From a virus (taxonomy: Duplodnaviria > Heunggongvirae > Uroviricota > Caudoviricetes), in IMG/VR virus record IMGVR_UViG_2778261499_000005: DNA of 5,155 nucleotides; one strand, written 5' to 3'. How positions within the stretch are numbered: position 1 is the stretch's first letter; every line of letters starts with the position of its first letter. Under the pieces are notes generated by a model. That model had not been told where the DNA came from, did no database searches, and worked only from the letters and a program-made list of their open reading frames with translations. Shown here piece after piece: positions 1-5,155 of this stretch. The position numbers and the translations under genes are program-made.

Positions 1-187
1 TAAAGTGCATTAGTTCAGATGCAAATTGACATTTTGTGGCACAGGGTAGAGCTAGCGTGGTTGTCCGCTTTGTGCCAGGAGCGGAAGTTGCCAAGAGAAC
101 TCTTGCAAAGGTATGATAACGTAGGTGCTAAATAATCATGAACCATAATAAATTAAAGGTTTTTAAGTTAACTCTATGGCGTTTCTT

Positions 188-216
188 TTGCATGATGATT
201 TTTTATTTATTATATA
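188..216 (+). promoter_or_regulatory. Candidate sigma70 promoter for the AT-rich ORF: TTGCAT (188-193), 17-bp spacer, TATATA (211-216)
   Basis: Hexamers read directly from the sequence with 17-bp spacing; predicted start near 223, about 60 nt upstream of the SD-led ATG at 283. AT-rich DNA gives many chance -10-like hexamers, so this is weak. Confidence 0.3.
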
Positions 217-327
217 AAGCTTAAATATACATAATATTTAGCTTCATTTTTTTAGGTATTTTAAAGATTTAGAGGAATGTGAATGGCTACTTATGCTTCT
301 TATTTACCAGAATAACAAATTATCACT

Positions 328-1626
328 TTGTGCAAGGATTTCCCAGCGTTTACTGATCCTGAAAAATTAGATGGATTCATTAATCCAGAACAGTTTGGCG
401 TGTTTTTTCATGAGTGGATTCATTTTCTTCACAATATTTCCACAATTAATGGGTTTTCTATTTTTTGCACGCAAAACATCCTGTGGTCTAATTTTCGCTG
501 GGCAATGGACAATCAGGATGTATGTCTTGGTTCAAATGACATGGATCCAGCACATATCGAATCAAACAAAAATTTTCTCAGTTACATTCGTTCCAATAGG
601 AGTCTGCATAAATGTAACTTACCTTATTATGTAAAAGTAAACGACTTGTATTTTGAGGATGCAATAATCCATGACATGGAGGTTGCTGACGGTAGTGTTA
701 TATGTACATCATTAATAAAGTGTAGAATTTCTCATTCTGAAAACAAATACGATCTAGATTTAGGCGTGCTTGAAATACTTGAATCCGCAGCTTTTATGCT
801 TGAATGTAAGTGTATTAATGCGATGAATGGCTTCCCTCAAGAGGCACCCTTTTATCCGTATCATACTATCAAGGGCTTAGCAGCGAAAATTGCTCCGTCA
901 TTAAATGATGAAGATATTATTTGTTGTATGTTAGCTTCTTTGCAATCTAATAACCCTCCCCAAGTATTATTCAATCTACTACATAAATGTGAATTATTAC
1001 ATTCTGATTGTAGGTATGAACATCTAGTGGCGGAGGTGAAAAAACAATTAAGCGAACAAGATCAAATAATAAGCGAGTCACTTAATCAAATAATTCAAAT
1101 GATTCCTGTTGATGAACCGATGGGAAACTTTATCAAGCTTACTCTTAACAGAATAAGTAACAATTTGAACTATAGAAAGCAAAAACCGTTTTTTGAGTTA
1201 GATATAATAAAAAAAATAGCAGAAAAAACTGAGTTTATGAATGAAGTAATACAGAAATTCGGTGGTTGCACTATCATCCAGGTAAGACATGGAGATGATA
1301 ATGAACCACAGCGTGATATTATGTATGACTTTTGCTTACCTGAAAATAATGATTCAATTTTATTTGGTTCGAAAATGCTACGCGCTTGTTTTCACTTTAT
1401 ATTTATTCACTTTAAACTTTCTGGTGAAATCATGAAGACAGAAGAATTAAATATTTCGCCGCGTAATAAATGCCCATTTTATACTGTTTGCTGTGCATCA
1501 ATTCGAGCTAATAATAGTAATATCTGCGCTGAATCCCCTTGGAAATCAATGTCTATTGATGACAACAAAGGTTGTTATTATGCAGCAGCGATTAAAGCTA
1601 CTAACCCACCAGTTTTGCCGGATTAA
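328..1626 (+). CDS. Hypothetical 432-aa protein of unknown function; HEWIHFLH (HExxHxxH) at residues 28-35, about 20 Cys; candidate horizontally acquired prophage cargo
   Basis: 1299-nt uninterrupted frame in stop-rich, roughly 30% GC DNA. The start is uncertain: TTG at 328 has no SD, and an in-frame SD-led ATG at 283 is separated from the ORF by a single TAA at 313-315. No family recognised from memory. Confidence 0.8.
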   Translation: MCKDFPAFTDPEKLDGFINPEQFGVFFHEWIHFLHNISTINGFSIFCTQNILWSNFRWAMDNQDVCLGSNDMDPAHIESNKNFLSYIRSNRSLHKCNLPYYVKVNDLYFEDAIIHDMEVADGSVICTSLIKCRISHSENKYDLDLGVLEILESAAFMLECKCINAMNGFPQEAPFYPYHTIKGLAAKIAPSLNDEDIICCMLASLQSNNPPQVLFNLLHKCELLHSDCRYEHLVAEVKKQLSEQDQIISESLNQIIQMIPVDEPMGNFIKLTLNRISNNLNYRKQKPFFELDIIKKIAEKTEFMNEVIQKFGGCTIIQVRHGDDNEPQRDIMYDFCLPENNDSILFGSKMLRACFHFIFIHFKLSGEIMKTEELNISPRNKCPFYTVCCASIRANNSNICAESPWKSMSIDDNKGCYYAAAIKATNPPVLPD

Positions 1627-1871
1627 GAATAGTGTTCTATCTGATAAATATAAAATATTTAAGGTCAGGTCTGCTTATCGCTCAAAGCGGACTAGAAGGT
1701 TAGCTTGCGTCGGACTTGGCGTATTTAAAGAAGTGCTGGTGGTGACTGGTTGTTGTGTTCCATTTCTACAGAACAAAATCACAGAAACTATACCCAATAG
1801 TTATATTGAATCAATGATGAGACAGCCTCATATTTATCAGGACTGGTGTACGTCCAATACAGGAGGTTGTC

Positions 1872-1961
1872 GTGCTGGTTCTCAAATGTGCGCTAGCTAT
1901 TGCGGCTGTAATGGCAATTTATTGTCTTGCTGTTGTTCTTACGGATCGCCTTTCTGATTGA
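1872..1961 (+). CDS. Candidate small membrane peptide, 29 aa (MLVLKCALAIAAVMAIYCLAVVLTDRLSD)
   Basis: AGGAGG (1861-1866) lies 5 nt upstream of GTG 1872. The product is a single hydrophobic helix with a charged tail (TDRLSD); stop TGA at 1959-1961. Too short to appear in the ORF track; no homolog recalled. Confidence 0.3.
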   Translation: MLVLKCALAIAAVMAIYCLAVVLTDRLSD

Positions 1962-1968
1962 TTTTATA

Positions 1969-1997
1969 TTGGCGAGGTGACGTGAGTTAAGTAGAAT
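1969..1997 (+). promoter_or_regulatory. Candidate hok mRNA promoter: TTGGCG (1969-1974), 17-bp spacer, TAGAAT (1992-1997)
   Basis: Good -10 (TAGAAT) with a TTGnnn -35 at 17-bp spacing. The predicted start near 2004 coincides with the 5' element that is complementary to the region after hok. Confidence 0.4.
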
Positions 1998-2003
1998 TGC
2001 TGC

Positions 2004-2051
2004 GGGTGCTTGAGGCTATCTGCCTCAGGCATGAACACCAAAGGCAGATAG
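2004..2051 (+). promoter_or_regulatory. hok mRNA 5' leader refolding elements (tac/ucb/dcb-like)
   Basis: 2009-2015 (cttgagg) pairs with 2023-2029 (cctcagg) as a 7-bp stem with a 7-nt loop. 2016-2024 (ctatctgcc) is also the exact reverse complement of 2043-2051 (ggcagatag). 2004-2015 is complementary to 2380-2392. These are mutually exclusive pairings, as in the hok mRNA switch. Confidence 0.45.
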
Positions 2052-2059
2052 AGAAAAGC

Positions 2060-2124
2060 CCCAGATAACATTACGCGTCCGGCAAGACGCTTAACATTAA
2101 TCTGAGGCCAATTTCATGCTTTGC
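2060..2124 (-). ncRNA. sok: Candidate Sok-like antisense RNA, antitoxin of the hok locus (extent approximate)
   Basis: In hok/sok loci the antisense RNA covers the mok translation-initiation region. A minus-strand promoter-like pair (TTGCCT at plus 2154-2159, 17-bp spacer, TAACCT at plus 2131-2136) would start transcription near 2124, running across the mok SD (2103-2107) and ATG (2116). No clean minus-strand terminator was found, so the 3' end is a guess. Confidence 0.35.
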
Positions 2125-2328
2125 ACATGTAGGTTAGCCTCTTACGCGCCGGAAGGCAAGGAGAAGCAGGCTATGAAGCAGCAAAAGGCGATGTTAGTCG
2201 CACTGATTGTCATCTGTTTAACCGTCATAGTGACGGCACTGGTAACGAGGAAAGACCTCTGCGAGGTGCGAATCCGAACCGGTCAGACGGAGGTCGCTGT
2301 CTTCACAGCTTACGAACCTGAGGAGTAA
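2116..2328 (+). CDS. mok: mok-like frame (70 codons), in-frame N-terminal extension of hok that couples hok translation
   Basis: ATG 2116 preceded by tGAGG (2103-2107) at 8 nt; it shares frame and stop with hok, as I recall for chromosomal mok/hok pairs. The 70-codon length matches known mok frames. Confidence 0.55.
   Translation: MLCTCRLASYAPEGKEKQAMKQQKAMLVALIVICLTVIVTALVTRKDLCEVRIRTGQTEVAVFTAYEPEE
2173..2328 (+). CDS. hok: Hok/Gef-family type I toxin, 51 aa (HokD/RelF-like)
   Basis: Translation MKQQKAMLVALIVICLTVIVTALVTRKDLCEVRIRTGQTEVAVFTAYEPEE matches the Hok family and is near-identical to E. coli HokD/RelF as I remember it. AAGGAG (2158-2163) lies 9 nt upstream of ATG; stop TAA at 2326-2328. 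Confidence 0.93.
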   Translation: MKQQKAMLVALIVICLTVIVTALVTRKDLCEVRIRTGQTEVAVFTAYEPEE

Positions 2329-2337
2329 GAGTGACTA

Positions 2338-2392
2338 GGCGAGGGAGAAATCCCTCGCCGCCTCTGATGTGTCAGGCATCCTCAACGCACCC
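2338..2392 (+). promoter_or_regulatory. hok mRNA 3' structures: perfect 9-bp hairpin with GAAA loop (2338-2359) and fbi-like element (2380-2392)
   Basis: ggcgaggga-gaaa-tccctcgcc is a perfect hairpin with no following U-tract. cctcaacgcaccc (2380-2392) pairs with gggtgcttgagg (2004-2015) over 12 bp with one bulged C. Confidence 0.45.
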
Positions 2393-2796
2393 ACACTTAA
2401 CCTGATTCGGCGAGTTTATTTTATCTGTGAATATTTTTATAAAAATAATGCCCATACACAGCAAAAAACAAAAAGTATTACAGATAAAAAAGGAGCGTAA
2501 TGTGCAGATTTGTTGTTTTCCATATTTACTCACCTTAATATGATTAATCCTGATAGGATTGTTATTTCAGCGGTTTTCAAATGAGATATTATGGTGATCT
2601 GACAAATTTGCATAACATTAAAATTTAATTTGTTTAACCGCTTTTAATAATAAGCGTTGTTTGTATCCCAGCAATCTGTTGTTTGGTTTTTATTCCATTA
2701 AGGTGGGGGCTTTACACTGGAACCAGTTTATTTATACTTTATACGTCAGCCTGAACAACTGGCATCTGCTGCACTGCGCCATCGAGAGATTGAGAA

Positions 2797-3396
2797 ATGG
2801 CGCATATACAACTGGTCAAACAAACTTCTTCTGGTTTACTTCTCCCGGCGACGCCGGAGAGTTGCGATTTTCTGCATCAAATCAAAATAGGTGAGTGGAT
2901 ACACGCAGACTTTAAGCGTGTGCGTAACTACGCATTCCACAAGCGTTTTTTCAAACTCCTGCAACTGGGATTCGATTACTGGACTCCGGTCGGTGGGGCG
3001 ATCACGCCTCGCGAACGAGAACTGCTGTCTGGTTTCGTTGATTACCTGTGCGAATCAGTTGGTCGGGAACACACGCCAGCCCTGAGTGATGCCGCAGAGC
3101 AATACCTTAACACCGTTGCGACTCGTAGAACCCGGGATACGGCGTTGCTAAAGTCGTTTGAGGCTTTCCGCGAGTGGGTAACCATTCAGGCCGGATTTTA
3201 CACCGAGCATATTTATCCGGACGGTAGCCGTGGGCGTCGGGCAAAATCCATCGCTTTTGCGAATATGGACGAAGTCGAGTTTCAGCAGGTTTATAAATCT
3301 GTACTGAATGTGTTGTGGAACTGGATTCTGTTCCGTAAATTCTCCTCTCAGGAGGAAGTTGAAAATGTGGCCGCACAACTACTGGAGTTTGCGTAA
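2797..3396 (+). CDS. Prophage protein of unknown function, 199 aa (DUF1367-like, from memory)
   Basis: 600-nt ORF at about 50% GC; its stop overlaps the next gene's ATG (TAATG at 3394-3398). A roughly 200-aa protein directly upstream of a DUF1364 gene and Q matches the arrangement I recall in lambdoid prophages. Confidence 0.8.
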   Translation: MAHIQLVKQTSSGLLLPATPESCDFLHQIKIGEWIHADFKRVRNYAFHKRFFKLLQLGFDYWTPVGGAITPRERELLSGFVDYLCESVGREHTPALSDAAEQYLNTVATRRTRDTALLKSFEAFREWVTIQAGFYTEHIYPDGSRGRRAKSIAFANMDEVEFQQVYKSVLNVLWNWILFRKFSSQEEVENVAAQLLEFA

Positions 3397-3686
3397 TGGT
3401 GAATTTACGTAAAGCGGCTAAAGGCCAGATGTGCCAGATCAGAATCCCTGGCTACTGCAATCACAATCCCGAAACCTCTGTGCTGGCGCATTACAGGCTG
3501 GCGGGGACGTGCGGAACAGCGACAAAACCACACGATATGCAGGCGGCGATAGCCTGTAGCTCATGCCACGATCTAATCGACGGGCGGGTAAAAACCAGCG
3601 ATTACACCAAAGAAGAATTGCGCCTGATGCATGCTGAAGGGGTTTTTCGCACACAAGAAATCTGGAGAAAGAAAGGTCATTTATGA
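3396..3686 (+). CDS. DUF1364 family prophage protein, 96 aa (YbcO-like)
   Basis: Translation MVNLRKAAKGQMCQIRIPGYCNHNPETSVLAH... resembles E. coli DLP12 YbcO (96 aa) in length, Cys pattern and the CQxRIPG motif. GGAG (3384-3387) lies 8 nt upstream; ATGA overlap with the Q start at 3683-3686. Confidence 0.85.
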   Translation: MVNLRKAAKGQMCQIRIPGYCNHNPETSVLAHYRLAGTCGTATKPHDMQAAIACSSCHDLIDGRVKTSDYTKEELRLMHAEGVFRTQEIWRKKGHL

Positions 3687-4225
3687 TTTACCCAACGAAT
3701 ACAGGAAAAAGCGGAGAACACCTTCGCCTCACCACGCTGGAAAGTGTCTGGATTCAGGGAAAACTACGTATGTGGGGGCGCTGGTCGTATATTGGCGGTG
3801 GCAGGTCAGGGAATATGTTCAATCAGTTGTTGGCATCCAAAAAACTGACGAAAACAGCCATTAATGAAGCCCTGCGCAGAATGAAAAAAGCGGGAATAGA
3901 GAAAGCTGAGCTGGAAGCGTTTTTGCGAGAGATGATCAACGGCAAGCAAAAGAGCTGGCTGGCGCATTGTACTGATGCAGAGGCGTTATGTATTGATCGA
4001 GTCATAAGTGAGGTGCTGGCAGAGCATCCAGGATTGATTTGCATTCTCCGGCAACGCTATGAAGGGCGGGGGATGACTAAGCGCAAAATGGCTGAATTGC
4101 TAAATGATGCACACCCAGAGTGGTGTTTTAGCACATGCGAAAAACGGATTGCTAATTGGTTAGCTGTTGCTGAGTATGCCCTATATATTCCCATGCGTGA
4201 ATCATTTGCTGAGAAAATGGCTTGA
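3683..4225 (+). CDS. Antitermination protein Q-like late-gene regulator, 180 aa
   Basis: Contains LRMWGRW, resembling the L-x-x-WG-x-W motif I recall in Q-family antiterminators such as QuuD. It is the last gene of the DUF1367-DUF1364 operon and is followed within about 80 nt by an intrinsic terminator. AAAGG (3672-3676) lies 6 nt upstream of ATG. Confidence 0.65.
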   Translation: MIYPTNTGKSGEHLRLTTLESVWIQGKLRMWGRWSYIGGGRSGNMFNQLLASKKLTKTAINEALRRMKKAGIEKAELEAFLREMINGKQKSWLAHCTDAEALCIDRVISEVLAEHPGLICILRQRYEGRGMTKRKMAELLNDAHPEWCFSTCEKRIANWLAVAEYALYIPMRESFAEKMA

Positions 4226-4303
4226 TTTCTTACGTATAAACTGCTTCAATTTTGCTATGCTTCGCAAAGCTGTATCGCGAGGCGGATTGCAGACATGGAC
4301 ATC
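4226..4303 (+). promoter_or_regulatory. Candidate Q-dependent late promoter and Q-utilisation region (position only; hexamers unresolved)
   Basis: Sits between the Q stop and the terminator, where lambdoid phages carry the late promoter and qut site. TATAAA at 4235-4240 is a possible -10, but no well-spaced -35 was found. Confidence 0.25.
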
Positions 4304-4305
4304 GT

Positions 4306-4332
4306 AAAAAAACCGCTTAATGCGGTTTTTTT
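4306..4332 (+). terminator. Symmetric, potentially bidirectional intrinsic terminator (tR-prime-like)
   Basis: aaaaaaa-ccgc-ttaat-gcgg-ttttttt: a 4-bp GC stem (4313-4316 / 4322-4325) with a 5-nt loop, flanked by a 7-A run (4306-4312) and a 7-T run (4326-4332) that extend the stem. Confidence 0.6.
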
Positions 4333-4369
4333 ACGTCAGGAAAGCAGGGGAGAATGCTGCTAGTTGGGC

Positions 4370-4408
4370 AACTGGTCTTTCTGCTCCAAATTATAACAGA
4401 GACCAGTT
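4370..4408. repeat. Perfect 9-bp inverted repeat, aactggtct (4370-4378) / agaccagtt (4400-4408), with a 21-nt spacer
   Basis: Exact reverse complements read from the sequence. An 8-T run follows at 4425-4432. Function unknown: RNA hairpin or protein-binding site. Confidence 0.5.
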
Positions 4409-4652
4409 ATAGTTTCGGTGCTGTGTTTTTTTTACAATATTGTGATAACACATTGCTGGCGGGAGTTTTGATATTTCTTGGCAGGGGCTGATGATGCGTT
4501 ATCCTGATGTCGTCAACTCATATAAAATGAGATGAGAGATCATTGCAGGGTGGTTTGTAATTCGCTGTTTAGCGGGACAATATGTTGTCTGATACAAGAC
4601 ACCCGACGCCTCAGATTACTATAATAAAGACGAAGCATCCTTTGTATTGACC

Positions 4653-4678
4653 AACCGCCTGTTTAGGCGGTTCTTTTT
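4653..4678 (+). terminator. Rho-independent terminator
   Basis: aaccgcc (4653-4659), loop tgttta, ggcggtt (4666-4672), then cTTTTT (4673-4678). The GC-rich 5-bp core is extended by two A-T pairs; only the plus strand has the trailing U-tract. Confidence 0.5.
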
Positions 4679-5029
4679 GGGCTGGTTTATTGTATGCCAA
4701 ATGATTATTAAAAAGGTTGTGTTAATAACAAAATCCGAAATAATATGCCTGCATATTTTTATCTTGCTTATATTCTGCATATTGTGCATAGCAGGCTCAT
4801 CCCTGCAATCAAAACTGTATGATGAGTATTTTTTGTTTTCCTTTTTTCCAGTCATCTGATGATGACCTGCTTCTTTTTAATCCGGATCGACATCAGTTTT
4901 TTAAGATAATTCCTGCGAGTTATATGCATAAATACCACAAACTCCGCATTTTATGTGGTTGGGAGTTGCCGGGCGCGCAGTGAGTTTGCTAAGAAAACTC
5001 CTGCATGGTGAATCCCCCTGTGCGGTGGG

Positions 5030-5068
5030 GTGATACCATTAACCTTTTCTGTCGCCGACAGGTATCAC
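5030..5068. repeat. Perfect 8-bp inverted repeat, gtgatacc (5030-5037) / ggtatcac (5061-5068), with a 23-nt spacer; candidate operator or RNA structure upstream of the gene starting at 5102
   Basis: Exact reverse complements read from the sequence; located 34 nt upstream of the SD-led ATG at 5102. Confidence 0.45.
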
Positions 5069-5101
5069 GAACATTTTGTTCACCGGGAGGCACCCGGCAC
5101 C

Positions 5102-5155
5102 ATGCACTTCAATAGATTCTCTCCACATTATGGATATTCTTTCAGAATATCCCAC
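5102..5155 (+). CDS. Possible 5' end of a gene running off the window (MHFNRFSPHYGYSFRISH...)
   Basis: GGGAGG (5085-5090) lies 11 nt upstream of ATG 5102; the frame stays open to the window edge. Only 18 codons are visible, so this is weak. Confidence 0.25.
   Translation, partial: MHFNRFSPHYGYSFRISH

Follow-up and report, generated by a model that had tools for sequence, protein, structure and literature searches.

We conclude that the long open reading frame (ORF) in this stretch of E. coli DNA is, with high probability, the remainder of a prophage cargo gene struck by a recent and real nonsense mutation, and that the resulting allele is most likely null or severely weakened. The window (the whole stretch analysed, 5155 bp, which by exact-sequence match is the entire contig NLVF01000148.1 of E. 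coli draft assembly GCA_002510345.1) contains a 447-codon gene interrupted at codon 11. ATG 283, with the GAGGA before it, is the real start of this gene; a single C-to-A transversion at position 314, found in one assembly only, turns Ser11 (TCA) into an ochre codon (TAA); and ribosomes initiating at ATG 283 would release a peptide of 10 residues. The relevant features are:

272 to 276, plus strand: Shine-Dalgarno (SD) sequence GAGGA of the true start, with a predicted anti-SD pairing energy of -6.0 kcal/mol and equivalents in three other genera.
283 to 315, plus strand: the truncated product MATYASYLPE, then TAA, as read from the sequence.
283 to 1626, plus strand: the full gene, 447 codons and a stop, broken at codon 11 in the window, as delimited by the RefSeq 1344-nt CDS and by PHROG 15354.
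314, plus strand: the single changed base, Ser11 TCA to ochre TAA, which is A in the window and C in 13 of 13 copies by column-by-column comparison.
328 to 1626, plus strand: the remainder ORF of 432 aa, beginning at TTG 328 and annotated as WP_244580301.1 on NLVF01000148.1.

A preliminary description of the window had reported GAGGA at 272 to 276, 6 nt before ATG 283, the peptide MATYASYLPE, the TAA at 313 to 315, and a 432-aa ORF running from TTG 328 to 1626 in frame with ATG 283, and every one of these coordinates holds. It had also remarked that the later candidate starts lack an SD, and this is borne out by predicted anti-SD pairing of +0.2 kcal/mol for TTG 328 (which lies 12 nt past the TAA), +0.2 kcal/mol for GTG 400, and -2.2 kcal/mol for ATG 505, as compared with -6.0 kcal/mol for ATG 283. 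An SD as strong as that of ATG 283 is found at about 10% of window positions, so that the pairing of SD and ATG is unremarkable by itself and constitutes weak evidence; what carries it beyond chance is comparison with other genomes, which shows that ATG 283 is the true start of the gene family.

We compared the window with 13 complete E. coli chromosomes in which the surrounding region is at least 99.5% identical. Codon 11 is TCA (Ser) in all 13, and TAA occurs only in the window. In 11 of them RefSeq annotates a 447-aa CDS (1344 nt) that opens at the counterpart of ATG 283 (WP_000257039.1, WP_073520295.1, and WP_338928287.1), and the intact form of window 283-1626 can be seen, for example, at positions 3134-4477 of one E. 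coli locus that we compared (L002); in the remaining two genomes a frameshift splits the gene, and the N-terminal fragment still keeps the equivalent ATG as its start. C314A is the sole CDS difference between the window and the commonest allele (WP_000257039), and with the CDS otherwise matching that intact allele exactly, the change must be very recent. The preliminary description had named T313 as the base whose read support deserved checking; that choice was off by one, since the departure from all relatives is at 314 (C to A). Records of the intact 447-aa protein come from 936 contigs, and those of the 432-aa TTG 328 product, WP_244580301.1, from one contig only, NLVF01000148.1 itself.

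The same start and the same sense codon extend well beyond E. coli. We compared three orthologs at the DNA level, from Sodalis (75% identity), Enterobacter (61%), and Aeromonas (47%); each begins at the same ATG, preceded 6 to 8 nt upstream by GAGAGG, GAGGGA, or GAGGA, and each encodes Ser at codon 11 (TCA or TCG). Alignment of orthologous loci at codon 11, which the preliminary description had proposed, thus returns a sense codon for all 13 E. coli copies and for three further genera, and TCA or TCG in every DNA-level relative, just as expected if the window holds a pseudogene with intact relatives; the opposite pattern, in which orthologs would share the stop and a conserved start downstream of it, was not seen. 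The equivalent of TTG 328 is TTA in Sodalis, Enterobacter, and Aeromonas, so TTG 328 is not a conserved alternative start. In all four genera a stop codon directly precedes the start ATG (TGA, TGA, TAA, and TAG; positions 280 to 282 of the window), making a longer reading frame impossible in the orthologs; this arrangement could reflect chance in an A+T-rich spacer, or selection against upstream read-in.

Several lines of comparison show that the codons ahead of the stop encode a conserved stretch of the protein. Specifically, i) in codons 5-16 the three orthologs together show 17 synonymous changes relative to E. coli and 1 non-synonymous, when random single-base changes would be 24% synonymous, a rough binomial p of 4e-10 for lineages that are not fully independent; ii) Y7 and I14 are invariant in protein alignments of 26 and 36 members and near-invariant in a broader alignment reaching down to 17% identity (Y7 in 54, P9 in 42, and I14 in 50 of 56 members), so that protein-level constraint extends upstream of the stop as part of one gene; iii) residue 11 is variable but always sense, and the 36 and 56 aligned proteins all read through this position; iv) PHROG 15354 matches residues 1-445; and v) a profile search returned 1029 representative clusters at E <= 0.001, and among the best 150 of these most are 440-500 aa long and match from profile positions 2-8, while a handful match only from about profile position 14 onward and may have mis-called starts.

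The preliminary description had offered an early nonsense mutation, a sequencing error, or a leader peptide as explanations for the interrupted frame, and also expression by reinitiation or from a weak start. Nonsense mutation and sequencing error both survive as candidate explanations, but the leader peptide does not, given the sense codon 11 of the relatives and the conservation of the segment upstream of the stop. Under the leader hypothesis, the 10-codon ORF would be a regulatory upstream ORF for a downstream gene with its own start, and a strictly local look at this one sequence does reveal an SD-led short ORF just before a long one, much as in attenuation of the trpL or ermCL type. Here, however, none of the relatives examined has the stop (0 of 13 E. 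coli copies, 0 of 3 other genera), the short ORF shares the reading frame of the long one and has codons homologous to the conserved protein N-terminus, and neither a conserved downstream start nor a separate downstream ribosome-binding site is present. Nor did Rfam return any match around the short ORF or the surrounding cassette (window 1-1700) even at E <= 1, and the predicted RNA fold of 118-345 is no better than that of shuffled sequence (z = 0.03). We therefore reject a leader peptide or attenuator, the likelihood of which we consider negligible. Reinitiation is more likely than that, if still distinctly improbable, as an account of how the gene might remain expressed: ribosomes would restart at TTG 328, ATT 319, or ATC 322 to make an active product lacking residues 1-15. 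TTG 328 is in frame and just 12 nt beyond the stop, the product would keep the HExxH motif (codons 43-47) and all that lies downstream of it, and the contig's own annotation agrees. Translation is classically known to restart after early nonsense codons, as in the lacI restart proteins, and UUG or GUG codons without an SD that follow soon after an early stop can support low-level reinitiation; the likeness to lacI lies in an early stop with such a codon in frame a few codons further on. In our case reinitiation is hypothetical, and the segment lost is not a dispensable N-terminus but one holding near-invariant residues: the product would lack Y7, P9, and I14 as well as both predicted N-terminal strands, the SD pairing at TTG 328 is predicted to be +0.2 kcal/mol, the TTG itself is TTA in three genera, and only a handful of members among the best 150 clusters match from about position 14. 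Low-level reinitiation at TTG 328 might follow from the mutation, but we see no support for reinitiation or a weak start as an evolved way of expressing the gene. No start downstream of the stop is conserved or SD-led. The lack of an SD at the restart codons, together with the loss of conserved residues, leads us to infer that the TAA allele would have lost function.

A sequencing or assembly error is the remaining way to dispose of the stop: the strain would have TCA, and A314 would have been miscalled in the consensus of a 2017-era draft assembly. In favor of an error, the allele occurs on exactly one contig among more than 900 that carry the gene, it is a singleton with no accompanying changes, and the contig is short (5155 bp). 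Against an error, site 314 lies outside any homopolymer, the four other called genes on NLVF01000148.1 are full length and thus give no general sign of poor contig quality, and genuine singleton substitutions turn up in this gene at about 3e-4 per base (14 copies, with 5 other singletons in the CDS). By our own estimate, the substitution-error rate of a short-read consensus should be well below that figure. For these reasons (a non-homopolymer site, intact neighbors on the contig, and the singleton rate) we infer that C314A is real rather than a base-call error, the former being highly probable and the latter quite unlikely. The lesion is an ordinary strain-specific knock-out allele or, less likely, a base-call error, and in either case a matter of little consequence in itself, confined to one strain and to an accessory prophage gene. 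It resembles other strain-specific nonsense pseudogenes in prophage "moron" genes in that one substitution creates an early stop, the gene is intact in relatives, there is no further decay, and the annotation pipeline reports the longest ORF left over, opened by a weak internal start; we see no difference in kind, the particular feature here being an affected family without known function. The 432-aa WP_244580301.1 is a spurious annotation, an artefact of taking the longest remaining ORF with a weak TTG start, and the case shows how an annotation pipeline can turn a nonsense allele into a 432-aa "protein". The locus would be better annotated as a disrupted copy of WP_000257039, and the 10-codon ORF should not be called a leader peptide.

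The gene has been interrupted in other ways elsewhere, at one site that is also visible in the window:

1209 to 1216, plus strand: an A8 homopolymer run; two other genomes have A7 here and a split gene.

The two A7 genomes are chicken E. coli isolates (L003 and L011), each with two annotated CDSs (WP_000257038 and WP_001006509) in place of one, and loss of the A could be a real slippage frameshift or a homopolymer sequencing artefact. In GCA_050626115.1 (L014, positions 5003-7122), an IS1 element with a short target duplication lies within the gene near the window equivalent of 444-452, leaving a 57-aa N-terminal fragment and a 373-aa remainder ORF. This assembly was considered as a second carrier of the TAA and rejected, since its truncation is due to IS1 and Ser11 is kept; a metagenome scaffold (L015) was rejected because a run of N's in it is an assembly artefact rather than a mutation, and a short contig (L016) because it begins in the middle of the gene. 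The 373-aa product expected from ATG 505 is on record from three contigs, none of which has the TAA, and a 408-aa product from GTG 400 is not on record. Disruptions of the gene thus number up to three that are independent, and we do not claim an excess of loss of function. One could argue that the knock-out is adaptive, the gene being costly or self-toxic (as abortive-infection genes can be) and its loss repeatedly favored, since three different lesions have been found (the nonsense codon, the A8 to A7 frameshift in two genomes, and IS1) and relatives of the gene are located among defence genes. We think this unlikely: disrupted copies are a small minority against 936 contigs with the intact protein, the homopolymer frameshift may be a sequencing artefact, and the IS1 case came from a search for truncated products, so that the count is biased toward lesions when intact copies are in fact far commoner.

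The nonsense allele resides in a cargo cassette, with the following features:

About 63 to 1693, plus strand: the mobile cargo cassette, comprising a leader, a promoter, and one gene, at least 99.5% identical in 13 complete E. coli genomes.
88 to 117, plus strand: promoter-like TTGCCA-N18-TATGAT, 10 of 12 matches in a consensus scan, overlapping a palindrome.
50 to 85, no strand assigned: left arm of an imperfect inverted repeat that pairs with 1670-1705 over 36 nt (72% complementary).
1670 to 1705, no strand assigned: right arm of the same repeat, pairing with 50-85.

Identity with the copies in P2-like prophages begins near 63 and ends near 1693, and a cassette-free lambdoid backbone matches window 1 to about 70 and 1668-5155; the cassette is therefore about 1.6 kb long. 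The gene is A+T-rich, with a GC content of 30-37%, compared with 42-53% over most flanking prophage genes. The same promoter-like hexamers and spacing recur upstream of the Sodalis ortholog (L018, about 7700-8000), which suggests that TTGCCA-N18-TATGAT is a promoter. The palindrome overlapping this site is perfect in Sodalis (TTGCCAAA-N5-TTTGGCAA) and may be an operator. The inverted repeat, with core GTCCGCTTTG / CAAAGCGGAC, has arms that bracket the cassette and may mark how it moves. We also considered a 28-codon hydrophobic ORF at 138-224 (MNHNKLKVFKLTLWRFFCMMIFYLLYKA, with AGGTG upstream) as a partner gene, and rejected it as probably not a gene, since the orthologous loci of Sodalis, Enterobacter, and Aeromonas do not conserve it. 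The cassette is near-identical in two unrelated types of prophage, P2-like and lambdoid, and no near-identical copy could be found in a phage-genome collection.

In 12 of the 13 complete genomes the cassette is carried by P2-like prophages, exactly in the gap between G (the tail-fibre assembly gene) and FI (the sheath gene), which in P2 is the "moron position 2" cargo site (PMC3573123). The window and strain H3 instead have it in a lambdoid prophage, upstream of hokD, at a site where other strains have AbiH and a hypothetical gene. The cassette thus occupies the same sites as P2 "moron position 2" cargo and lambdoid AbiH, but its gene is a different one from the cargo described there, and its position suggests an accessory or defence role. 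The lambdoid site, between a DUF977 gene and hokD (window 1-70 and 1668-5155), is a variable cargo site, holding the cassette alone, or a BCCT transporter, DUF2254, and the cassette, or AbiH and a hypothetical gene, or DUF2254, LysR, a gamma-glutamylcyclotransferase, and an MFS transporter, depending on the strain.

More distant relatives are likewise solitary genes in mobile or defence contexts. The Sodalis ortholog lies in a conjugative-element region and adjoins an ApeA-HEPN gene; the Enterobacter ortholog adjoins a reverse transcriptase, an AAA_15 ATPase, and IS elements; and 81 ORFs neighboring relatives in eight further species include Shedu SduA (2.9e-171), Lamassu LmuA, reverse transcriptases, Avs1a, CapP, MADS components, the Tn7-like TniQ, TnsB, and TnsD, and integrases. 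The family is thus found in cargo hotspots near known defence genes, as would be expected of anti-phage defence genes.

As to the protein itself, two sets of codons stand out:

409 to 423, plus strand: codons of the invariant HExxH motif (H43 E44 W I H47), from protein alignments.
1471 to 1575, plus strand: codons of a C-terminal module with four invariant cysteines (C397, C403, C415, and C431), from protein alignments.

H43 and E44 never vary, and at least 90% of 56 members have H47; E167, likewise invariant in the alignment of 56, is a candidate third metal ligand. The HExxH motif expected of a zincin is thus in place, and we found no known metallopeptidase family that the protein resembles in fold or profile. 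Searches of Pfam, NCBIfam, and PADLOC gave no match that names the protein, or its 36 and 56 relatives; PADLOC v2.0.0 yielded no credible match to a known defence family, PHROGs gave matches to "unknown function" families only, PDB sequences produced nothing by phmmer or by profile, and the accession and PHROG identifiers of the protein appear in no searchable paper. An AlphaFold2 model of P0002, an 85%-identical relative, is confident (pLDDT 92.4, pTM 0.92) and places residues 5-8 and 13-16 in beta-strands; no credible structural neighbor of this model was found in PDB or BFVD. The gene is a member of a large unnamed HExxH and four-cysteine family of at least 1029 clusters for which there is no Pfam, NCBIfam, or PADLOC model.

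Lit, the HExxH abortive-infection protease (Peptidase_U49) of the e14 prophage, offers a plausible functional parallel to the intact gene, since both would be cytoplasmic HExxH proteins encoded by a single gene in a defective lambdoid prophage. The two differ in that our protein has no sequence or profile similarity to Lit (no Pfam or PADLOC match to the Lit/Peptidase_U49 profile at E <= 1 for the protein and 36 relatives), is 447 aa long, and has a C-terminal four-cysteine module. Our working guess, drawn from association, is that the intact gene may encode a cytoplasmic metal-dependent enzyme serving phage-borne defence or abortive infection by a Lit-like logic. The more specific proposal, that it represents a new single-gene abortive-infection or defence metalloenzyme with Lit-like logic whose nonsense, frameshift, and IS1 alleles reflect a cost to the host, is one that we would entertain only tentatively. 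We wish to stress that the interrupted gene family is more interesting than the stop codon: an HExxH family found in defence hotspots without recognizable structural relatives could reasonably be entered in an anti-phage screen, for which the S11* allele found in nature would be a ready-made null control.

Two further elements were noted downstream of the cassette. A hok/sok type I toxin-antitoxin locus spans window 2004-2328, where Rfam matches sok at 2004-2178 (116 bits) and a HOK_GEF ORF, annotated hokD in related genomes, is called at 2116-2328; and an Rfam match to the sRNA STnc100 (81.5 bits) occupies 4973-5155, its 3′ end cut by the end of the contig.
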